The position numbers and the translations under genes were made by a program. From positions 64,001 to 128,000 of IMG/VR virus record IMGVR_UViG_3300031159_000070: a DNA stretch of 64,000 nucleotides. One strand, given 5' to 3'. The notes below the pieces were generated by a model. It was not told the DNA's origin. It made no database searches and saw only the letters and a list, made by a program, of their open reading frames with translations. Each line of letters opens with the position of its first letter. Position 1 is the stretch's first letter. Positions 2,249-42,356 of the stretch are shown in pieces. Source of the stretch: a virus.

Positions 2249-3139
2249 TCAGATCAATGCCGTCTCTCTGGCGGCGCAGGCGCGGCGCAATTCCTTCTCC
2301 ATGATCTTCAGCGCGTGAATGGTGGCCTTGATCTTGTCGGCCATCAGCTCGGTGCGGTCCGGCGACACTCTCGTGGCGACGATGCACTCGCCGTCCTTCC
2401 ATCCGCTGGCGGCCATGGCGGCCATGCGTTCGATGCGGGTCTCCATCTGATTCAGCGTGGCTACGTCCTGTGCGCTCGCCTGAGGCGCGTTGGCGGGCAG
2501 CAGATCAGGCTGGGCGGCCTTGTCCTGCAACGTGGCGACGGCGGAGCGGATGGCATCGATCGTGGTGAGCTTGCCGGCCGTGTAGGCGGCCATGACGCGG
2601 CGTTGGTCGGAGTGGGAGAGCTTGGCCATTTCGAGCGCGTAGAGCGGCGGTAGGGCTCCGGTGGCGACCAGCTGTTGAATGGACGTGTCAAGGTCCATGA
2701 GGCTGAGGCGCCATCTGACACGGAACGGAGCGCAGCCGACGGCGCGGGCGAGGGCTTCCGGCTCCCAGCCTTTGGCGACCATGGCGGCGAAGGCGCGGGC
2801 CTCCTCGATCGGATTGAGATCCGCGCGCTGCAGGTTCTCGATAATGGCGGCGACATCGCGGTCCTTCGTGCTCAGTCTCTCGACCTGGGCCTTGATGGTC
2901 TCGAATCGCTTGTCGGTTTCGGCGAGCAGCCGATGGGCGCGCCAGCGGCACTCGCCGGCGACGATCTCGTAGATGGTGCCGACTTCGTCAGGCTTTACGC
3001 GGCGCACGGTGATGGGCTGCATGAGGCCGGCGGCGCGGATCGATGCGGCAAGCGCGCGAATGTGCTCGATCGGGAAGGTCTGTCGGGGATTGTCCGGGTT
3101 CGGACGGATGAGGGAAATCGGTATACGCTCAATGGTCAT
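2249..3139 (-). CDS. parB: ParB/RepB/Spo0J family protein
   Basis: PNPDNPRQTF, LMQPITVR, YEIVAGECRWRA, IIENLQRADLNPIEEA, then an HTH. Confidence 0.9.
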   Translation of the reverse strand: MTIERIPISLIRPNPDNPRQTFPIEHIRALAASIRAAGLMQPITVRRVKPDEVGTIYEIVAGECRWRAHRLLAETDKRFETIKAQVERLSTKDRDVAAIIENLQRADLNPIEEARAFAAMVAKGWEPEALARAVGCAPFRVRWRLSLMDLDTSIQQLVATGALPPLYALEMAKLSHSDQRRVMAAYTAGKLTTIDAIRSAVATLQDKAAQPDLLPANAPQASAQDVATLNQMETRIERMAAMAASGWKDGECIVATRVSPDRTELMADKIKATIHALKIMEKELRRACAARETALI

Positions 3140-4131: not shown

Positions 4132-4554
4132 TCAGGCTGCTTTCTGGACGGTCGGGTCGTAGGTCACGACCCAACCCTTGCCGATCACGTAATGGCCGCC
4201 TTTGACCGGCTCGAACGGTTGCGCCGAGATGTCGGTCGGATCGAACAGCCCGTACCGGTCGGGGTTAGCCTTCCACTTCGCGATCCACTCCTCGCGCACG
4301 GACTGCTGCCACTCGTTGAAGGCGGCCACGGTCTCATCCGGGATGGGGCGCGTCGAGCTTGTCCGGTGCAGTATACCGATGGCGGCCACCACGTCGCGCT
4401 CCCAGGCCTCGTCCGTGTAACTGGTGATGCTGCGCTCGTAATCCGAGACGCGGCGGCGGAGTTCGACCTCATAGGTGCCGGTCTCGTCGGTCACCTCGTA
4501 CCAGACGCAGTTGAGATACGAGCAGGTCCAGCGGAATGTCGGCTTGATTGCCAT
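4132..4554 (-). CDS. hypothetical protein
   Basis: 140-aa ORF with AAGGAG RBS. Confidence 0.7.
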   Translation of the reverse strand: MAIKPTFRWTCSYLNCVWYEVTDETGTYEVELRRRVSDYERSITSYTDEAWERDVVAAIGILHRTSSTRPIPDETVAAFNEWQQSVREEWIAKWKANPDRYGLFDPTDISAQPFEPVKGGHYVIGKGWVVTYDPTVQKAA

Positions 4555-4569
4555 GGCTCCAATCTCCTT

Positions 4570-4833
4570 TCAGCGCTCAAGCGCGTAGCGAGCTGCTGTC
4601 TCAAGGTCTCGGTCGCTGCCGACGATGCCGTTGTGGCTCACGCACCAGAGGCCGCGCCGGTCGCGCCAGATGAGGACGCTGGGCCCGTCCTTGACGTCGA
4701 CTTGCGTCAGGCCATCGCGGTCGCACAGCTCATCGTTCACCCAATGAGCATTGCCGAACTCGCCGTGGTGAATGCCGCGTAGCCAGAGCGATCCATAGAT
4801 GGTCGCGATCTTCTCGTGGTCGGTGAAGGTCAT
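4570..4833 (-). CDS. hypothetical protein
   Basis: ORF from MTFTDHEK with ACGGAG RBS. Confidence 0.6.
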   Translation of the reverse strand: MTFTDHEKIATIYGSLWLRGIHHGEFGNAHWVNDELCDRDGLTQVDVKDGPSVLIWRDRRGLWCVSHNGIVGSDRDLETAARYALER

Positions 4834-4901
4834 GGCTGTCTCCGTTGTCTGATCTGGTGCAGGGGATGGGAGCCGGGCGGGCCGGCTCCACATGAGCTGC
4901 A

Positions 4902-8941: not shown

Positions 8942-9235
8942 TTACTCTCCTGGGATCGGTTCAAAGAACTCGTCGAGTTCTGCACCGAGGACCTCGGCGT
9001 AGAGCTTGAGCTGTCCGGCGAAGACGCGCGAGCGCCCGTTCTCGTGCTGCTGCACGAGCGGCTTCGTGAAGCCGGTCAGTTCGGCCAGCGTGTCGAGCGA
9101 CACGCCGGCCCTCTGCCGCAGGCGACGCAGATTGTAGGCAACGAGCTGATTGTTCAGAGCAGCCGCCCCGAGGCCGCCGGCTCCAGATTGCCCTCGATCT
9201 TCGCTTTTCCGAGTTCGTGCTTCAGTGCGTGCCAT
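8942..9235 (-). CDS. XRE/Cro-family HTH regulator (start uncertain)
   Basis: NLRRLRQRAGVSLDTLAELTGFTKPLVQQHENG...LGAELDEFF. Confidence 0.8.
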   Translation of the reverse strand: MARTEARTRKSEDRGQSGAGGLGAAALNNQLVAYNLRRLRQRAGVSLDTLAELTGFTKPLVQQHENGRSRVFAGQLKLYAEVLGAELDEFFEPIPGE

Positions 9236-10074
9236 GCTGTCGGGAGCTCATGATAAACGTGGCCGTCGAGCGTTGCGCCGCCCTTCTCATCGGGTTCCTT
9301 CTCGAGCCCGCGCGCAATCGCGAGCTGGAAGGCCTTCTGTATCGTGATCCGCTCCTCCTTGGCAATTCTGACGGCGTAGGGGTTGTTCTTCGGGTGCCCG
9401 TACTGCTTGAACCAGATCGCAGCGTTGGCAGCGCGCGACTTGTCGATCGATGACTTAAGCCAGTCGAGCGCCATCGGCCGGCATTTCGGACCCGACTCGC
9501 CACCGATCAAGATCCAGTCGCACCCTGAGAAGTCGACCTTGTCGATTGGCCCGATCAATGGCTCGACGGACAGGAAAGCGCAGGAGACGTTGTGGCGGGC
9601 CTTGATATCGCGCAGCACGTCCGTGCGCTTGGCCACGTCATTGTTCTCGATCGACGTGCCGAACCAGAGGTGGAATGGCGCACGGTTATGCCCATATCGG
9701 CGGCGCAGGTAGCGACCGGCAACGCCTGGGCGTTTGGTGAGTAGCTGGAAGATGGTGATGGGATTGTCTTCCATTGCATCGAAGACCTGATCTCGAAATG
9801 TGTCTGGGATCTGCTCGTGAAAAATGTCCGACATTGAGTTCAGGAAGACCATCCTTGGCACGACTTCTCCCACAGCGTTTCGCAGGGGTTTCATCGCGCG
9901 AATGTCCTCCAGCCTCTTGGGGTAATAGCGAATTTCCTCGAACGGGTTTTTTCCCAACCGGTCGTTGATGGCTTCGGCATAGCAGAAGTCACATCCTGCG
10001 CTGACCTTCGTGCAACCCCAGGTGGGATTGATTGTCGTGTTGGTCCAAGAGATTCCGGTCTTCAGGACGGTCAT
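9154..10074 (-). CDS. DUF5131 (phage Gp37/Gp68) radical-SAM-like protein
   Basis: TGISWTNTTINPTWGCTKVSAGCDFCYAE (CX6CX2C), NSMSDIFH, LTKRP, LSVEPL, WILIGGESG. Confidence 0.92.
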   Translation of the reverse strand: MTVLKTGISWTNTTINPTWGCTKVSAGCDFCYAEAINDRLGKNPFEEIRYYPKRLEDIRAMKPLRNAVGEVVPRMVFLNSMSDIFHEQIPDTFRDQVFDAMEDNPITIFQLLTKRPGVAGRYLRRRYGHNRAPFHLWFGTSIENNDVAKRTDVLRDIKARHNVSCAFLSVEPLIGPIDKVDFSGCDWILIGGESGPKCRPMALDWLKSSIDKSRAANAAIWFKQYGHPKNNPYAVRIAKEERITIQKAFQLAIARGLEKEPDEKGGATLDGHVYHELPTAWHALKHELGKAKIEGNLEPAASGRLL

Positions 10075-10666
10075 TCGACTTCCTCTCGATTGTTCGCTTG
10101 ATGACGGATATGGGAACGTTGCTGTTCTTCACCGGTCTTCTGTTGATATGGAAAAGAGTCTCATCTGCTGGTGCGGTGTGAAGTACATGCAGGGGGAGAC
10201 CTAAAGCTTTTGCGTATCGAATTTTTCGGCTGAGATCGCGACGTCGTGCTCCGGTCACTTCGACTGCAACGCGTTTTCCTTCGTAGGTTGCGGCAATGTC
10301 GAATGGAGATCCATGTGAGAGTTCCGATAGGTGCACGATTTCTGTGTATCCGAGTTTCGGAAGGATTCTCGCTATAGCTCGTCTTTCAAGCCTGCGACCT
10401 GTGCCGACAGTATCGCCGCGCGACCCTGATGGCCTCTTGGCGAAGCCGTACCATGCTGTGTTGAAGGCTGAATGCCAGTCCTTCTGAGTGCGTCGCCGTT
10501 CCGCCGCTTTTTGACGCCGGGCGATATGATAGCAACTCTGCGAGCAGTATCTGTTCCTGTGATCTCTGTCGTATTTTTGGCCGCGGTACGGTGTAGGGCC
10601 GCCGCAGACACCGCATGGTCTGTCACTGATCCCATAGCTTATCACCGCTTGCGCTCCTCGCGGCAT
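9989..10666 (-). CDS. Zn-finger plus PD-(D/E)XK-like nuclease protein
   Basis: CGVCG...YCSQSC; E...PFDIAATYEGKRVAVEV; lower GC than neighbours. Confidence 0.6.
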   Translation of the reverse strand: MPRGAQAVISYGISDRPCGVCGGPTPYRGQKYDRDHRNRYCSQSCYHIARRQKAAERRRTQKDWHSAFNTAWYGFAKRPSGSRGDTVGTGRRLERRAIARILPKLGYTEIVHLSELSHGSPFDIAATYEGKRVAVEVTGARRRDLSRKIRYAKALGLPLHVLHTAPADETLFHINRRPVKNSNVPISVIKRTIERKSNDRPEDRNLLDQHDNQSHLGLHEGQRRM

Positions 10667-11004: not shown

Positions 11005-11033
11005 AGTATAATAGCACTATACTATTCCATCAA
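11005..11033 (-). promoter_or_regulatory. sigma70-type promoter at the early/late divergence
   Basis: Minus strand TTGATG-17bp-TATACT; an overlapping TATAAT lies on the plus strand at 11007-11012. Confidence 0.6.
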
Positions 11034-11042
11034 GTCGCGGTG

Positions 11043-11173
11043 CGAGCGCGATGCTCGGTGCCGTGCAGTCTCAGGGGCGATCCCTGGAACTCAGTTCAAC
11101 CCGCGTCGCAGCGCGATGCTGCGGTCAAGGAGAAACCCACCATGTCTGCAATGAACGGCGGGAGCGATTCCCG
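11043..11173 (+). repeat. four GCGAT-loop hairpins in the terS leader/start
   Basis: CGAGC-GCGAT-GCTCG, CAGGG-GCGAT-CCCTG, CGCAGC-GCGAT-GCTGCG, CGGGA-GCGAT-TCCCG. Confidence 0.8.
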
Positions 11174-11615
11174 GCGGGAAGGCAACTACACTGGTAAGCC
11201 TCCGCGTTTTACGGTCGAACAGGTCATCGAGGCATTGCGTGCCGCGGCCGGTGTCCAGCACATCGCCGCGCAAAAGCTCGGGTGTGCGCGCTCCACCATC
11301 ACCTATTACAAGCGCAAGCACCCCGAGATAGAAGAGGCGCTCGAGGAGATCAAGGAAAGCCTCATCGACCTTTCCGAGGGTGTCGTCTGGCACCACGTCC
11401 GCAAGAAGAATCTGCGTGCAGCACAGTTCGTGCTCGAAACGATCGGCAAGCAGCGCGGCTGGGTCAAGCGCGGCGAGATCGCCGGCGTCAACGGCGAGCC
11501 GATCGAAGTGCGTCTCGGGCTCGACCTTTCGAACCTGTCGCCCGAAGAGCTGATTACCCTCGATCAGCTGCTGGCACGAGCTCAGGGCAAGCCCACAGAA
11601 GCCGTTCCGAACTGA
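11142..11615 (+). CDS. terS: terminase small subunit
   Basis: N-terminal HTH, AAQFVLETIGKQRGW, EIAGVNGEPI; AAGGAG RBS; directly upstream of terL. Confidence 0.8.
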   Translation: MSAMNGGSDSRREGNYTGKPPRFTVEQVIEALRAAAGVQHIAAQKLGCARSTITYYKRKHPEIEEALEEIKESLIDLSEGVVWHHVRKKNLRAAQFVLETIGKQRGWVKRGEIAGVNGEPIEVRLGLDLSNLSPEELITLDQLLARAQGKPTEAVPN

Positions 11616-11616
11616 C

Positions 11617-13170
11617 GTGCTCTCTGCCGCGCAGTGGCGGCAGCTCAACGAACGTCCGCGCGACGTCGTTGATCTTCGGGCCGCGATAGATCGGACGCTC
11701 TGCGAGAAGTCGTTCTCGCATTTCGTGCGTCAGGCCTGGCCGTACATCGATCCGGCGCACTACCTGCACAACTGGCACATCGATGCGATCGCCGAGCATC
11801 TTGAAGCGGTGATGCGCGGCGAGATCCGGCGGCTGCTCATCAACATCCCGCCGCGGTCGATGAAGAGCCTCATGTGCTCCGTCGCGTTCCCGGCCTACGT
11901 GTGGGCGCAGGAGCCGATCAAGGGGCCGGACGGCGTTCAGCTGCCGACGTGCGGGCCCCACTGCCAGTTCTTCTATGCGTCCTATGCCGCAGAGCTGTCG
12001 ACTGAGCACTCGGTCAAGACGCGCGATCTCATACTGTCGCCCTGGTATCAGAGCCGCTGGGGCACTCGCTTCAAGCTCAAGGGCGACGCCAACCTAAAGA
12101 CCAAGTTCGACAACGACAAAGGCGGCAAGCGTCTCGCCGCCTCGGTCGGCGGCATATCGACCGGTTTCGGCGGCGACATCATCGTCGTCGACGACCCGCA
12201 CAACACCAAGACCTCGGAAAGCGACGTCGTCCGCGATGAGACGGTGCGCTGGTATTTCGAGGTTCTGCAAACCCGTCTCAACGATCCGAAGCGTGGCGCG
12301 TTCATCGTCGTCATGCAGCGCGTTCACGAACGTGACGTCGCTGGCGAGATCATCGCGCGAGAGGCAGGCTACGTTCATCTGTGCCTACCGGCGCGGTTCG
12401 AATCCGATCATCCGTTCGTGTGGGTCCGCGATCCGCGCGCCGTCGAGAACGGCGGGGAAGGGGACGGCCAGCTGCTCTGGCCAGAGCGCTTCGGCGAGAA
12501 GGAGCTCGAAGAGCTCGCCATCATGGGAGAGTACGGCGTCGCCGGCCAGCTGCAGCAACGTCCGGCTCCGCGCACCGGCGGCTTCTTCGAGACCGACAAG
12601 ATCGAGGTCATCGATCACCTGCCGGTCGACGCAGACGGCAAGCCGATCAAGATCGTCAAACGCGTAAGGGCCTGGGACCTCGCTGCCACCAAGGATATCG
12701 GCTCGCTTGACCCGAGCTGGACCGTCGGCGTCCTGATGGCCAAGGGCGAGAACGGTGTCTTCTACGTCGAGGACGTGCAGCGGTTCAGAGAGAACCCGCA
12801 CGAGGTCGAGGTGCGCATTCGTCGGACTGCGCAGATCGACGGCCGTGATGTCGAGATTTCGATTCCGAAAGATCCGGGTGCGGCCGGCAAGACGGTTGCT
12901 GAGCATCTCATCAGGATGCTCGCCGGCTTTATCGTCAAGGAAGAGCCGCAGTCAGCCGACAAGGCCCAGCGGGCCAAGCCGTTCGCTGCGCAGGTCGGCG
13001 GACGAAACGTGAAGCTCATCCGAGCCAGTTGGAACCGGGCGTACCTGGACGAGCTGCAGACGTTTCCTATGGGTCGGCATAATGACCAGGTCGACGCATC
13101 GGCGTCGGCTTTCAACCGGCTCGCTGATCCCGGCAAGATCGGCTTCATCATCGGTGGTGGTCGCAGATAG
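11617..13170 (+). CDS. terL: terminase large subunit
   Basis: LLINIPPRSMKS (Walker A), IIVVDDPH (Walker B), nuclease AWDLA and HNDQVDA. Confidence 0.96.
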   Translation: MLSAAQWRQLNERPRDVVDLRAAIDRTLCEKSFSHFVRQAWPYIDPAHYLHNWHIDAIAEHLEAVMRGEIRRLLINIPPRSMKSLMCSVAFPAYVWAQEPIKGPDGVQLPTCGPHCQFFYASYAAELSTEHSVKTRDLILSPWYQSRWGTRFKLKGDANLKTKFDNDKGGKRLAASVGGISTGFGGDIIVVDDPHNTKTSESDVVRDETVRWYFEVLQTRLNDPKRGAFIVVMQRVHERDVAGEIIAREAGYVHLCLPARFESDHPFVWVRDPRAVENGGEGDGQLLWPERFGEKELEELAIMGEYGVAGQLQQRPAPRTGGFFETDKIEVIDHLPVDADGKPIKIVKRVRAWDLAATKDIGSLDPSWTVGVLMAKGENGVFYVEDVQRFRENPHEVEVRIRRTAQIDGRDVEISIPKDPGAAGKTVAEHLIRMLAGFIVKEEPQSADKAQRAKPFAAQVGGRNVKLIRASWNRAYLDELQTFPMGRHNDQVDASASAFNRLADPGKIGFIIGGGRR

Positions 13171-13845: not shown

Positions 13846-15420
13846 ATGCCAACTCCGCTCCCCCGCATTTCGTCGGACACCAAGACCGGTGGTCAGGGTC
13901 GCATGCGCGATCCGAGCACGCCGTCCTACGCCTACCTGCGAATGGAGGAAGACTGGCACGTCGTTCGCACCGTCTACGAGGGCACTCGGGCGATGCGCGA
14001 AGCGCGCCACCGGTATCTGCCTCAGCACACCCGTGAGACCGATGACGAGTACGAGCGGCGCCTGCAGTGCACCACGCTGCACAACGTGCTTCGCGATGCC
14101 GTCCAGAACACAGCCGCCCGCCCGTTTCGCAAGCGCATCGCCCTCACCGAAACGAGCCCCGAGGTTGCGCAGTTCTGGGCCGAAGATATCGATCTGATCG
14201 GCAACAGTCTGCATATGTTCGCCGTCCGCGCCTTTCGCGAGGCGCTGCTCGACGGCATGGTGCACGTCCTTGTCGATATGTCGATCGTGCCGCCCGGCGC
14301 GACGAAGGCTGATGAGATGGCGCTCCGGACTCGTCCGTTCTGGACGCTTGTTCCCGCACGGGACCTCATTGCCGCCTACAGTCGCTTTGACGAGGCCGGC
14401 AACAAGATCTGCTATCACGCGCGCATCCGCGAAACGGTTACCGAGCTCGAGGACGATTTCTTCGAGGTGGAGGTCGAAAGAGTCCGCGTCTACCGGCTGA
14501 AACCGGAGGAAGATGAGTTTGGCAATCCGATCGAAGGTGGCCGCGAAGTCGCCGTGTGGGAGCTGTGGGAGCGGACTTCTGCCGGCTGGGAAGTCATCGA
14601 CGGAGGACCGCTGCTCAAGGCCGGCGGCGAGCCCTGGGATCGCGTGCCGCTCGAGACCTTCTATTGCGGCAACTTCATCGACGATTATGTCGCCACGCCG
14701 CCGTTTCTCGATCTTGCATGGAAGAACGTCGAGCACTGGCAGTCATCCTCTGACCAGCGCAACATCCTGACCAAGGGACGCTTTCCGATCCTTGCCGCCT
14801 CCGGCATCGAAGATCCATCGAAGCTGCTCAATGACAAGGGCGAGCTGGAGATCGGCCCGCACACAGCGCTCGTCACGCCGCACAAGGAAGCCAAGTGGTA
14901 TTATGTCGAACCACAAGGCAATGCGATCAAAGCGGGCGCTGAAGATCTGAAGCAGCTCGTCGAGGACATGCGCATCATGGGCCTCGACCCGCTGATGCCG
15001 CAGAACGGTGGCATGCAGACGGCCACGGAGCGCTCGATCGATGAATCCAAGGCGCGCGCGCCGCTTGAGCAGTGGGCGTGGGAGTTCGCCGATTTTATTT
15101 CACGTTGCTTCGATCGCATGTTCGAATGGGTCGGCCTGGGTCAATACGTCGGACTGGCCAAGGTCCTGCTCGATATCGACATGGGGCTTGGTGACGAGAA
15201 CAAGCACGACCTGCAGACGCTGCTACAGCTGCGTCAGCTCGGAGACATCTCGCGCCACACGCTCTACGAGGAGCTGAAACGGCGCGGCCTGCTCGGGCCG
15301 TACTTCGATCCGTTGAGAGAAGAGCAGTTCATCGAGCAGGAGCTGATGATGATCGCCCGCACCAATCCCAATTTCGATGACGACAGCGACGGTGCAGGCG
15401 ATGAGTCGTTTCTCAATTAA
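13846..15420 (+). CDS. portal protein (DUF4055 family)
   Basis: YLPQHTRETDDEYERRL, PPFLDLAWKNVEHWQSSSD, TATE; position after terL. Confidence 0.9.
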   Translation: MPTPLPRISSDTKTGGQGRMRDPSTPSYAYLRMEEDWHVVRTVYEGTRAMREARHRYLPQHTRETDDEYERRLQCTTLHNVLRDAVQNTAARPFRKRIALTETSPEVAQFWAEDIDLIGNSLHMFAVRAFREALLDGMVHVLVDMSIVPPGATKADEMALRTRPFWTLVPARDLIAAYSRFDEAGNKICYHARIRETVTELEDDFFEVEVERVRVYRLKPEEDEFGNPIEGGREVAVWELWERTSAGWEVIDGGPLLKAGGEPWDRVPLETFYCGNFIDDYVATPPFLDLAWKNVEHWQSSSDQRNILTKGRFPILAASGIEDPSKLLNDKGELEIGPHTALVTPHKEAKWYYVEPQGNAIKAGAEDLKQLVEDMRIMGLDPLMPQNGGMQTATERSIDESKARAPLEQWAWEFADFISRCFDRMFEWVGLGQYVGLAKVLLDIDMGLGDENKHDLQTLLQLRQLGDISRHTLYEELKRRGLLGPYFDPLREEQFIEQELMMIARTNPNFDDDSDGAGDESFLN

Positions 15421-38536: not shown

Positions 38537-38611
38537 TGTGGGGTGGAGCAGTGGTAGCTCGCTGGTCTCATACGCCAGAGGTCGTCGGTTCGAATCCGAC
38601 CCCCGCAACCA
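38537..38611 (+). tRNA. tRNA-Met(CAT), initiator-like scaffold, encoded CCA
   Basis: TGTGGGG/CCCCGCA acceptor stem, GAGC/GCTC D stem, CTGGT-CTCATAC-GCCAG anticodon arm, GTCGG-TTCGAAT-CCGAC T arm, ACCA end. Confidence 0.93.
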
Positions 38612-39159: not shown

Positions 39160-39190
39160 AACGGGCACCTTCGGGTGCCCGTTGTATTTT
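39160..39190 (+). terminator. UUCG-capped terminator hairpin
   Basis: AACGGGCACC-TTCG-GGTGCCCGTT followed by a T-rich tract. Confidence 0.75.
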
Positions 39191-39290: not shown

Positions 39291-39386
39291 ACCATCGGCT
39301 CATTGCGAGCGATGAGCTATGGGCCCTCCTTGGGCGTTGTTTCCTCCCTAGACTTGGGCCGTTCGGAAATCCGGACGGCCTTTTTC
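39291..39386 (+). ncRNA. mmgR: alpha-r8/MmgR (Rfam suhB)-like small RNA
   Basis: CCCTCCTTGGGCGTTGTTTCCTCCCTAGACTTGGGCCG core, terminator GGCCGTTCGG-AAAT-CCGGACGGCC-TTTTT, 5' hairpin and its own promoter. Confidence 0.85.
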
Positions 39387-39513
39387 GTTGGGGGATCGTT
39401 CAGTACGGCGAAGGCGGGGTGCCTGCGCTTTGCGATTGTCCTGAGATGTGCTGCTCAATACGCCCACTCGATTTTGGAGTGCGGCAGGTCACGGCTTTCC
39501 GAAAAAGCAGCGC

Positions 39514-39750
39514 TCAGGGTCGTCGATCGATGCGGGACCATTTGGGCTCGTCGAGACCTCGCTCGACGCGCCGCATCTTCGTCTTTACCGCCGCAAACGA
39601 GCGGTGGTCTGAGGGTGAGCTCGGCGTAAAAACGATCGTCCTGTGCCGAGGATGCGTCAGCCTGTAATGCTGATTCTTGGTCTGCTCGATATCCCAGCCA
39701 CGCTTCTTCGCGTAGCTCAATAGCTCGCGGCGGTAGTGTGCGGGGTTCAT
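39514..39750 (-). CDS. HicA-like small protein
   Basis: ELLSYAKKRGWDIEQTKNQHYRLTHP...TPSSPSDHR; GAGGAG RBS. Confidence 0.65.
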   Translation of the reverse strand: MNPAHYRRELLSYAKKRGWDIEQTKNQHYRLTHPRHRTIVFTPSSPSDHRSFAAVKTKMRRVERGLDEPKWSRIDRRP

Positions 39751-39760
39751 GGGCGTCTCC

Positions 39761-40114
39761 TCAGGCGGCACGCTTGATGGAGACTTGCTGAAGCTGCCAC
39801 TGCAGAATGATCTTTTCGCGCAGCCACGCTCGAAAAAGAGCTTCATGCAGCGGTTTCGAGTAGGACCAGTGTCCATTCACTCCCATCTGTCGCGCGCGGC
39901 TGCAGGCGACCTCGAGCTTTAGGATAAGTGCTCGCGTATTGTGGATCGCGGCCTTGGCATCGACCAGGAGATGCGCGGCTGGATCAACGAGCATATTCGG
40001 ATCGTCAATGATCGGCGCCCATTTCGGAATGTCGCGACGATCATAACTGCCGATCTTCGCACGTAAATCAGCACAGCTTTGTTGCCAGGATTTGACGTCC
40101 TGCAGCTCGATCAT
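39761..40114 (-). CDS. hypothetical protein
   Basis: 117 aa, AAGGAG RBS. Confidence 0.65.
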   Translation of the reverse strand: MIELQDVKSWQQSCADLRAKIGSYDRRDIPKWAPIIDDPNMLVDPAAHLLVDAKAAIHNTRALILKLEVACSRARQMGVNGHWSYSKPLHEALFRAWLREKIILQWQLQQVSIKRAA

Positions 40115-40289
40115 GGTGGTCTCCTTGGGGCTCGCGTCCGGGTCGGGCAGGCGGTAGTCTCACGCCACTTGCCATCATGCGTCTAGTATAACTGGTCTTG
40201 ATGCCGTCCAGCAAGGATCAGTCCAGCTCTCCACAGCTGGGTCAGTCGGGCGCCGTTCGCCTTCGTCCGTAATCGATCAGAGTGCCGGG

Positions 40290-40385
40290 CCGGCGCGATG
40301 CCGGGTCGGATCACCTCAACTGCCAGCTTGTCTGCCGGCGCGATGCCGGTCGAGAGCCGAGGCCAACCGCGGGCGCGATGCCTGC
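40290..40385 (+). repeat. three GCGAT-loop hairpins in the scaffold leader
   Basis: CCGGC-GCGAT-GCCGG, GCCGGC-GCGAT-GCCGGT, GCGGGC-GCGAT-GCCTGC, the last abutting the GAGG RBS. Confidence 0.8.
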
Positions 40386-40398
40386 ATTGAGGATTGTG

Positions 40399-41271
40399 AT
40401 GTTCGACTTTCCACTGACCGTCAAATCAATCGACGAAGTTCCCGAAGAGTACCGCATCCTTTACGAGCTGAATGACGACGGCGAGGGCGCGACGCTCATC
40501 GCTAGTCTGAAGCAGCGCATAGAGGGTGTCGGTCCTGCCGGACAACGCGCTCTGCAGGAAGAGCGCAAGGCCCGGGCTGCTGCCGAAAAAGCCGCGAAGG
40601 CTTGGAAGGAGGCGGCCGGTGTCGAAACTCCGGAAGAGCTCACTGCCAAATTCGAGGAAATCGAATCCGAGTGGCAGCAGAAGCTCGAGGAAGCGCAGGC
40701 CACTAAAGGCGGCGACAAGGACGAAGATCTGAACAAGCGATTGCAGCAGGTCAGATCCGAAGTCGAGCGCGAGTGGAGCAAAAAGCTCGATCGGGAAATT
40801 GCCGAGCGCAAGAAGGCCGAGGAAGAGCGCGACCAGATGTTCAAAGACATGCAAAGGAACATGCTGGAGCGCGAAGCCATGGAGGCCATCGCAGCGCACA
40901 AGGGCAAGCCTACGCTGCTCAGGCGCGAGGTTATGGCCCAGCTCAAACTCGCCAAGACGGACGCCGGCTGGAAGGTCCGCGTCGTCGATGAAGATGGCGA
41001 TGAGCGCTACGACGGCGATGGAAAGCCGATGACGGTCCACAACCTCGTGGCACTGATGCGCCAGTCCGATGACTACGCGGCTGCTTTTGAGGGCGATGGC
41101 GCCACTGGAAGCGGTTCACGGTCGCCGGCCGGCGGCACGAAGATCTCCTCAAAAACCAACCCCTGGTCCAAAGCGACGTTCAACGCAACGGAGCAGGCCA
41201 AAATCCTGAAGTCGAATCCTCAGCTCGCCAAGCAACTGCAGGCGCAGGCTGAGGCCGAGGCTCGCAGGTAA
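40399..41271 (+). CDS. capsid scaffolding protein
   Basis: DEVPEEYRILY, RALQEERKAR, long coiled coil, GSGS linker, C-terminal NPWSKATFNATEQ; directly before the capsid gene. Confidence 0.88.
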   Translation: MFDFPLTVKSIDEVPEEYRILYELNDDGEGATLIASLKQRIEGVGPAGQRALQEERKARAAAEKAAKAWKEAAGVETPEELTAKFEEIESEWQQKLEEAQATKGGDKDEDLNKRLQQVRSEVEREWSKKLDREIAERKKAEEERDQMFKDMQRNMLEREAMEAIAAHKGKPTLLRREVMAQLKLAKTDAGWKVRVVDEDGDERYDGDGKPMTVHNLVALMRQSDDYAAAFEGDGATGSGSRSPAGGTKISSKTNPWSKATFNATEQAKILKSNPQLAKQLQAQAEAEARR

Positions 41272-41390: not shown

Positions 41391-42356
41391 ATGACTGAGA
41401 CTCGCCTTGCAGACGTTATCGTTCCCGAGCATTTCAATCAGTATTCGATGCAACTTACCACCGAGTTGTCTCGATTCCGGCGCTCTGGGCTTGTGGTCGA
41501 CTTCTCCGCGGAGCTTGGCTCCCAGATGGGCGGCACGACCGTCAACATGCCGTACTTCAACGATCTGGAGGGTGACGACGACGTCGTCGACGACACCCAG
41601 GATCTCGAGCTCAACAAGATCACGACCGGGCAGGATGTTGCGGTCAAGCTGTACCGCGCCAAGGCTTTCGGTGCAACCGACCTGTCCGGCGATCTCGCCG
41701 GCGCCGATCCTGTCAAGGCGATCGCCACGCGCTTTGCCGAGTGGTGGATCCGCAAGGAGCAGGAGGTTCTGATCTCGGTCTGTCAGGGCGCGCTCGGTTC
41801 GGCGCTGATGACCGATAACGTCCTCGATATTTCAAACCTCGAGGGCGCTGCCGCAAACTTCGATCCCTACAGCTTCATCGATGCGCAGGCGCGTCTCGGT
41901 GACCACCAGGATCTTCTGTCTGGCATTGCCTGCCACAGCAAGACCTACACGGCCATGAAGAAGGCTGATCTCATCGAGGAGATCCGGCCGTCGGATGGCG
42001 GTGATCCCATTCCGACCTACATGGGCAAGGTCCTGATCGTCGATGACAAGATGCCTTATTCTGAGGGCGTCTATACGACCTTCATCTTCGGCCAGGGCGC
42101 CATCGGCTACGTCTCCGCAAGCCCGAAGGTTCCCGTCGAGGTCGGTCGCGAGCCTCTGAAGGGCGGTGGCCAGGACTATATCGTCCAGCGCCGCTTCTTC
42201 GTCATGCACCCGCGCGGCGTGCGCTGGTCTCCGCAGCCTGGCGTCCCGGCGAGAGCGACGCCCACCAACGCCGAGCTGGCCAATACGGCCAACTGGCAGC
42301 GCTGCTATGACCCGAAGAACATCCGGATCGTGATGTTCAAGCACAAGGTCGGCTAA
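41391..42356 (+). CDS. major capsid protein
   Basis: TRLADVIVPEHF, GGTTVNMPYFNDL, PTYMGKVLIVDD, MHPRG, PTNAELA..ANW. Confidence 0.93.
   Translation: MTETRLADVIVPEHFNQYSMQLTTELSRFRRSGLVVDFSAELGSQMGGTTVNMPYFNDLEGDDDVVDDTQDLELNKITTGQDVAVKLYRAKAFGATDLSGDLAGADPVKAIATRFAEWWIRKEQEVLISVCQGALGSALMTDNVLDISNLEGAAANFDPYSFIDAQARLGDHQDLLSGIACHSKTYTAMKKADLIEEIRPSDGGDPIPTYMGKVLIVDDKMPYSEGVYTTFIFGQGAIGYVSASPKVPVEVGREPLKGGGQDYIVQRRFFVMHPRGVRWSPQPGVPARATPTNAELANTANWQRCYDPKNIRIVMFKHKVG

Follow-up and report, generated by a model that had tools for sequence, protein, structure and literature searches.

Hairpins with different stems and an invariant GCGAT loop lie at the heads of both late structural operons of a provirus and before head and packaging genes of other phages

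Results

This study concerns arrays of small hairpins in a 64,000-nucleotide (nt) stretch of viral DNA, here called the window, which corresponds to bases 64001-128000 of the 137,047-base-pair (bp) IMG/VR provirus record IMGVR_UViG_3300031159_000070 (60.6% G+C, estimated 95% complete). One array lies at the gene for the small terminase subunit (terS) and the other before the gene for the head scaffolding protein. The terS gene (11142..11615, plus strand, ATG at 11142) encodes 157 amino acids (aa), has a weak match to phrog_309 (E 4e-6) and is directly followed by terL (11617-13170, plus strand; phrog_38, E 2e-83), with the portal gene further downstream (13846-15420, plus strand; phrog_145, E 9e-107). 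The scaffolding protein gene (40399..41271, plus strand; phrog_206, E 2e-25) has the major head protein gene as its next neighbour (41391-42356, plus strand; phrog_247, E 9e-103). Because structural genes on the plus strand fill the record from 75 kb on, where nearly all genes are of this kind, the two arrays, with 29 kb between them, head the two late structural operons of the phage. The first operon would comprise terS, terL, the portal gene and genes downstream of it, and the second the scaffold, major capsid, head completion and tail genes. The sheath, tube and baseplate genes of Bradyrhizobium phage BDU-MI-1 are also present here, and thus the window phage is a myovirus-type relative.

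An initial annotation made from the letters alone had described four perfect hairpins at 11043-11173 that close the same GCGAT loop on entirely different stems, and all four were recovered, each on the plus strand. Hairpin 1 (11043..11057) has the 5-bp stem CGAGC/GCTCG, and hairpin 2 (11071..11087) has five Watson-Crick pairs, CAGGG/CCCTG (11072-11086), closed by an outer U-G pair. The core of hairpin 3 (11107-11123) consists of six Watson-Crick pairs, CGCAGC/GCTGCG, which two outer wobble pairs extend to 11105..11125. Hairpin 4 (11159..11173), with the 5-bp stem CGGGA/TCCCG, lies inside the gene, within terS codons 6-11 (+17 to +31 of the coding region). The terS Shine-Dalgarno (SD) sequence AAGGAGA, read from the sequence at 11127-11133 (plus strand), is 3 nt away from the hairpin 3 core, so that the ribosome-binding site is bracketed by hairpin 3 upstream and hairpin 4 in the coding region. 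Upstream lies a -10-like box, AGTATAAT (11005..11012, plus strand), which includes TATAAT at 11007-11012; the placement of the hairpins around the ribosome-binding site and start codon, downstream of a plus-strand TATAAT, is therefore as first described. A consensus promoter scan of the terS leader found no plus-strand sigma-70 promoter, the -35 match being absent, and its only promoter-like site was on the minus strand (11033-11005).

The scaffold leader carries three further plus-strand hairpins: hairpin 5 (40290..40304) with a 5-bp stem, hairpin 6 (40334..40350) with six pairs of which the outer is G-U, and hairpin 7 (40369..40385) with six pairs including an internal G-U. The loop is again GCGAT, as in all seven hairpins of the window. 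The scaffold SD, GAGGA (40389-40393, plus strand), lies 3 nt past hairpin 7 and is followed by the ATG at 40399, and a -10-like box, AGTATAAC (40185..40192, plus strand), precedes the array. Both clusters occupy divergent intergenic regions downstream of an AGTATAA box. The word GTATAA occurs five times in the 137-kb record, and its two plus-strand copies are those of the terS and scaffold leaders. The four terS hairpins are half of a two-site signal, very likely one of RNA.

Is the motif more than chance? The word GCGAT is common in the record, with 454 copies on the plus and 346 on the minus strand. Perfect 5-bp GCGAT hairpins number only six, all on the plus strand and all within the two leaders: four at terS and two of the three at 40290-40385, the third there needing one G-U pair. 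A scan against shuffled sequence had been proposed as a check, and in 100 dinucleotide shuffles of the record such hairpins averaged 0.5 and never exceeded 3. When every pentaloop on a 5-bp stem in the record was counted, GCGAT was the commonest (6), the next loops having 3. Hairpins in the ATCGC orientation, with stems of 3 to 6 bp, are absent from the window, and a relaxed scan of the whole record (at least 4 pairs, G-U allowed) added five scattered minus-strand GCGAT hairpins, none of them clustered. A lone long hairpin with a GCGAT loop (about 13 pairs counting G-U) was seen outside the window at about G000:C1 18660-18700 (plus strand). In Rfam 15 the whole window matched only a tRNA and the suhB/mmgR family, both outside the hairpin leaders; at E<=10 the leaders themselves scored at best 13.2 bits, where the threshold is 53.5, and 16 bits, where it is 34, none reaching half.

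Two IMG/VR contigs, L002 and L003, encode capsid proteins 84% and 80% identical to that of the window phage, and in both the array again precedes the scaffold SD, at the matching position. The L003 array holds two perfect hairpins, one of them identical to window hairpin 7, and one imperfect hairpin. That of L002 holds three, with loops GCGAG, GCGAT (on a bulged stem) and GCGAC, and in its SD-adjacent hairpin the third pair has changed from G-C to A-U and the fourth from G-U to G-C. The stems thus turn over under fixed pairing and a fixed G-C-G-A core, and the fifth loop base can vary. At the terS cluster, covariation is based on one diverged contig only, from public run X5, which retains the CAGC/GCGAT/GCTG core before the SD and in which T>C at 11125 turns the outer G-U of hairpin 3 into G-C. 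The same contig has no nucleotide difference over 11140-11176, which holds the start codon and hairpin 4; over the aligned part, 11140-11398, there are 41 differences and 2 gaps, the first listed at 11177. The terS peptide GGSDSRRE is invariant in two relatives. Among 5.8 billion proteins terS has only two non-self homologues, terL has no cultured relative above 40% identity, and scans of IMG/VR with terS and terL returned no close relative. Because the stems vary and the loop is fixed, the hairpin itself seems to be under selection. This had been argued from the terS array, and the argument is strengthened by the strand specificity of the motif, its G-U pairs on the sense strand, the second leader and the compensatory changes in relatives.

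Outside this group, IMG/VR was scanned for two copies of a 9-nt core within 12-42 nt, which gave at least 120 stretches. Among the matches listed, most were isolated matches or coding repeats and seven loci had at least two hairpins under a rule that allows G-U pairs; six of the seven are phage-like. The contig L031 has one matching copy together with further hairpins. The seventh locus, on the 3360-bp IMG/VR contig L054, was dropped as a phage array, having an RNA-dependent RNA polymerase-like open reading frame (ORF) on the other strand. In the unrelated contigs, again among the matches listed, the gene downstream of the array is a head or packaging gene in eight of the eight cases scored. 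It is terS in L010 and L124 (Pfam Terminase_7) and in L070 and L031 (phrog_226), the scaffold gene at a second site of L031 and in L052, and the major head protein gene in L107 and L120. The terS of L124 is of the type found in actinobacteriophages. The array of L107, a contig distantly related to the window phage (terL 41% identical), stands between the scaffold and capsid genes.

Two further phages have similar hairpins: GGGAC and GGGAT hairpins precede the scaffold gene of BDU-MI-1, and a GTGAT hairpin stands immediately before terS in cyanophage P-SS2. These share with the window hairpins the loop pattern G-N-G-A-Y, in which N is always C and Y always U here (7/7), and differ from them in marking single dispersed genes, whereas here rows of three to four head two long operons. 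A G-N-G-A-Y/N loop on a free stem, on the sense strand, describes all seven hairpins of the window, and among phages the distribution of the arrays is patchy. A literature text search (supplements not included) returned no paper on a GCGAU or pentaloop motif at phage capsid or terminase leaders. The cabRNA, reportedly a terminase-derived RNA, is different from the GCGAT hairpins. The hairpins belong to a class of RNA hairpin that is defined by its loop, is apparently undescribed and is found at head and packaging genes of diverse phages.

Several features bear on whether the array works as RNA or as DNA. In every case its orientation follows the downstream gene, and in 10 of the 12 arrays examined only 5-19 nt separate the end of the last hairpin from the start codon. 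When G-U pairs are allowed the seven window stems gain seven pairs; when A-C is allowed instead, which corresponds to G-U on the other strand, they gain none. In a set of 31 hairpins the gain is 56 with G-U and 3 with A-C, a comparison that is biased since the set was picked with the G-U rule. Because of orientation, G-U use and position at ribosome sites, sense-strand RNA is favoured, and a cruciform or double-strand binding site is unlikely.

Discussion

It is very likely that the hairpins are a functional sense-strand RNA element, with a function that is post-transcriptional and probably translational, to judge from their position and conservation. A model of how they might act can be drawn. 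Each late operon would start from an AGTATAA promoter-like box of its own, followed by a leader that is not translated. There are three to four small hairpins per leader, with free stems and a fixed loop, GCGAU here and G-N-G-A-Y/N across phages; this loop may be a GCGA turn of the GNRA type with one base in addition. The last upstream hairpin abuts the SD, and the terS site is additionally bracketed by the hairpin inside the coding region. A trans-acting reader, probably a multivalent RNA-binding protein, would bind the loops and thereby set the initiation of translation on the first gene of each operon; the effect may be repression or activation. Packaging and head-shell genes would in this way come under one post-transcriptional control. 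Translational control of head and packaging genes by a trans-acting reader is the reading that we prefer, with a probability of roughly 50%, because the last hairpin ends at the SD in 10/12 arrays, a geometry expected of an operator with a multivalent reader and not of a nut site. The first proposal for the terS array was a multivalent protein-binding RNA element, for antitermination or translational control; an RNA element with a trans-acting factor remains the best reading, and none of the results points to a protein, an Arg-rich peptide or antitermination.

Several observations weigh against this model. Taken whole, neither leader folds with unusual energy (z -0.56 and +0.32), and because of this the signal lies in the motif rather than in bulk stability; in the minimum-energy fold of the terS leader, hairpin 3 is displaced by an overlapping alternative hairpin. 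Strand use is less clear in the wider, unbiased count: of the 283 motif copies among the matches listed, 18 reach five pairs only with G-U and 13 only with A-C, and by arrays of at least two hairpins, again among those listed, the loci number 7 (G-U) against 2 (A-C). Contact with the ribosome site is not universal, since the arrays of L107 and L120 end 74 and 105 nt from the start codon. More distant relatives (L004-L007, capsid 41-56% identical) showed no GCGAN hairpins in a scan for GCGAN loops only, and the corresponding leaders of Arthrobacter phage MaGuCo, Rhizobium phage RHph_X3_2 and Erythrobacter phage R6L lack arrays. The IMG/VR pattern fixed GC-GCGAT-GC twice, which biases the estimate of breadth to high-GC phages. 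As for the reader, 20 neighbouring or shared proteins scanned with Pfam and PHROG contained no RNA-binding family, and CsrA (PF02599), ANTAR (PF03861) and Sigma70_r2 had no match in the record. By BLAST, the only non-structural protein common to the window phage, BDU-MI-1 and P-SS2 is SSB. The window phage has 22 proteins in common with BDU-MI-1, namely structural proteins, RtcB, MT-A70 methylase, a ThyX-like protein, SSB and two proteins without known function (174 aa; weak DUF7352 match), and it shares six with P-SS2 (DnaB, terL, portal, a fibre domain, SSB and a dCTP-deaminase-like protein).

Which protein could then read the loops? A weak lead is a 117-aa, DUF6477-like helical protein with an Arg-rich helix, encoded divergently from the scaffold leader (39761..40114, minus strand). 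Its support as the reader is synteny in three close relatives, L002 and L003 having homologues in the corresponding divergent position. In the family alignment the Arg-rich helix is conserved and an invariant Trp comes after it, and the AlphaFold2 model is all-helical with a pLDDT (predicted local distance difference test) of 93. A PDB search with this model gave no match at E<=0.001; the best rows were generic helical hairpins, small ribosomal protein chains among them, at E about 1-2. The 80 chromosomal homologues retrieved, nearly all from Hyphomicrobiales, stand beside SufE, DUF5330 and Ros/MucR genes, and against a role of this protein as the reader, clustered GNGAY hairpins were found in only 1 of these 80 loci, at a long distance from the gene. 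The 117-aa protein and the other small protein encoded divergently in the phage (94 aa) are not paralogues. A literature text search found no paper on DUF6477.

Known systems offer parts of the proposed arrangement: the single hairpin is most similar to boxB, and the organisation in arrays to the targets of CsrA or ANTAR proteins. CsrA/RsmA leaders have several GGA-loop hairpins with free stems, one of them at the SD, and a multivalent reader. As here, small fixed-loop hairpins bracket the ribosome-binding site; the differences are that the loop here is without GGA, that the record has no CsrA gene and that phage head genes are the targets. ANTAR substrates are tandem hairpins whose hexaloops, with A1 and G4, are conserved, and the second hairpin competes with a terminator. 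They resemble the present arrays in being tandem small hairpins with conserved loops and unconserved stems, whereas here the loops are pentaloops, the leaders hold no convincing terminator and the record has no ANTAR domain. The coat protein operators of MS2 and PP7 likewise control a structural message through a hairpin at the start site, but theirs is a single hairpin with the start codon and a bulged A. In P22, free scaffold reportedly lowers its own synthesis post-transcriptionally, and to our knowledge the operator RNA site has not been defined; the present case differs from P22 scaffold control in that one loop serves both terS and the scaffold gene.

One alternative is processive antitermination, in which nascent hairpins of a boxB/nut-like or put-like kind would load a factor or bind RNA polymerase directly and so let it pass terminators within the long late operons. 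The boxB hairpin is phage-encoded and lies in a promoter-proximal leader; its stem sequence is free and its loop is read. N of lambda and of P22 reads boxB through the pentaloop (PMC9074901). The hairpins here are alike in having a 5-6 bp stem and a pentaloop, beginning GCGA, with a possible GNRA-like turn and one extra base, whereas the loop letters differ from known boxB loops: GCGAU here and GAAAA or GACAA there. This likeness of the unit speaks for antitermination, as does the promoter-proximal place of the arrays in long operons, and two strong terminators lie just upstream of the scaffold leader (39160-39183 and 39356-39381). There are other differences from boxB. There is one copy there and three to four per leader here; boxB serves early operons, whereas the present arrays head late head and packaging operons; and these hairpins abut the ribosome site, an SD abutment that in 10 of 12 arrays is unexpected for nut sites. 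No boxA is present, in that neither leader has a word of the GCTCTT consensus type. Plus-strand terminator-like sites within or after the leaders are not above shuffles, and on both strands together they number 15 against 9.4 and 6 against 11.4 in shuffles, all of them weak. The scan of 20 proteins, which are part of the proteome, brought up nothing resembling N or Q. Antitermination is accordingly unlikely in our view.

We consider it similarly improbable that the hairpins stabilise or mark messages, either by forming the 5' ends of processed transcripts and shielding them from RNases that depend on the 5' end, or by marking a nuclease site. Messages for bulk proteins such as scaffold and capsid begin with the hairpins, and the array of L107, which lies inside an operon between the scaffold and capsid genes, would fit segmental stabilisation. 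But protection needs a stem only, which leaves the invariant loop in seven of seven copies and in unrelated phages without explanation, and the product of terS is needed in small amounts, yet terS has the largest array.

A translational enhancer or standby site that works without a protein, the loops docking on a conserved part of the 30S subunit, would account for the breadth of the hosts, which belong to different bacterial phyla (the carriers being a Prochlorococcus phage, one of Bradyrhizobium, and contigs whose terS is of actinophage type), for the want of a phage protein common to all carriers and for hairpins that adjoin the SD. Pairing of GNGAU with the 16S tail just 5' of the anti-SD was tried and rejected, GCGAU giving a central C-A mismatch in a 5-nt pairing. 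This reading is distinctly improbable: related phages without arrays exist, and a 5-nt loop can hardly pair throughout, with GCGAU mismatching the 16S tail.

Pac sites are often at the terS start, and the cos sites of HK97-like phages lie between an HNH-endonuclease gene and terS. A DNA-level element, either a terminase site of this kind, as first suggested in the form of a packaging-linked element, or extruded hairpins in the initiation of replication or transcription, would be in keeping with the terS cluster straddling the start of that gene and with the L010 array lying between an HNH-endonuclease-like gene and terS (the cos position in HK97-like phages), but it is hardly credible: a pac or cos site would be expected once per genome, at terS, and there are two arrays, the second 29 kb off before the scaffold gene; in BDU-MI-1, L052, L107 and L120 arrays stand before scaffold or capsid genes only, not terS; orientation tracks the downstream gene throughout; the stems use G-U pairs, which are A-C mismatches on the other strand; and double-strand binders would be expected to conserve the arms and not an asymmetric centre.

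A bolder reading may also be entertained, in which the G-N-G-A-Y hairpin would be a pan-phage head-regulon tag, a single RNA signal across unrelated head modules. Tailed phages of cyanobacteria and alphaproteobacteria, and probably those of actinobacteria, would have it in common. It would be recognised by a partner that is conserved universally: a component of the host machinery for translation or transcription, or else a conserved protein of head assembly or packaging, for example terL or portal. We regard this combined proposal as tentative and rather doubtful. Were it true, the assembly state of the head and the output of packaging and shell proteins would be linked, and an undescribed layer of late-gene control would exist in Caudoviricetes. 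In tailed phages, how the amounts of terminase, portal, scaffold and capsid are set is little understood beyond the strength of promoters and ribosome sites. A hairpin defined by its loop predicts a common reader, which could be recovered with the RNA as bait. The hairpin signature could also serve to find head and packaging operons and late leaders in unannotated viral contigs, and the hairpin could become a portable regulatory part.

Other features of the window, the record and related contigs

Just upstream of the terS leader, on the opposite strand, lies a gene for a DUF5131 protein (9154-10074, minus strand; E 1e-65), and a second minus-strand ORF upstream of this leader (9989-10666) has a weak match to an HNH-endonuclease PHROG (E 8e-4); the two calls overlap by 86 nt. 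In L010, a Cys/His-rich, HNH-endonuclease-like protein is encoded at 4522-4878 (minus strand; assigned by motif reading, with no Pfam match) before the array and terS, and the 230 nt from this gene to terS hold the array. The layout is presumably that of HK97-like cos phages, and the array would then fall between the presumed cos region and terS.

A minus-strand ORF of 120 aa (39514-39876; phrog_2089) on the scaffold side weakly resembles HicA toxins (E 0.0016, which does not pass the cut-off) and has a homologue in L002. As called, it shares 116 nt with the 117-aa gene, at the 3' part of the latter, and its true start is probably internal. A tRNA gene (38537-38608, plus strand) and, 700 nt downstream of it, a match to the alphaproteobacterial small RNA family suhB/mmgR (39316-39395, plus strand; 48 bits against a gathering score of 41) both lie just upstream of the scaffold leader, and the suhB/mmgR match ends in the strong terminator at 39356-39381.

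The rejected contig L054 carries, at about 3020-3110 (minus strand), three identical 6-bp GCGAT hairpins and a fourth with the word in a 7-nt loop. They are located past the 3' end of the opposite-strand ORF, which has 950 aa and a GDD polymerase-like motif, and the contig is probably from an RNA virus and unrelated to the phage signal. Outside the window, the record also encodes an RtcB RNA ligase (G000:C1 46690-48039, minus strand), an MT-A70 methyltransferase (G000:C1 25016-25657, plus strand) and a ThyX-like protein (G000:C1 32186-33160, minus strand), a trio that is also present in BDU-MI-1 at 30-44% identity.

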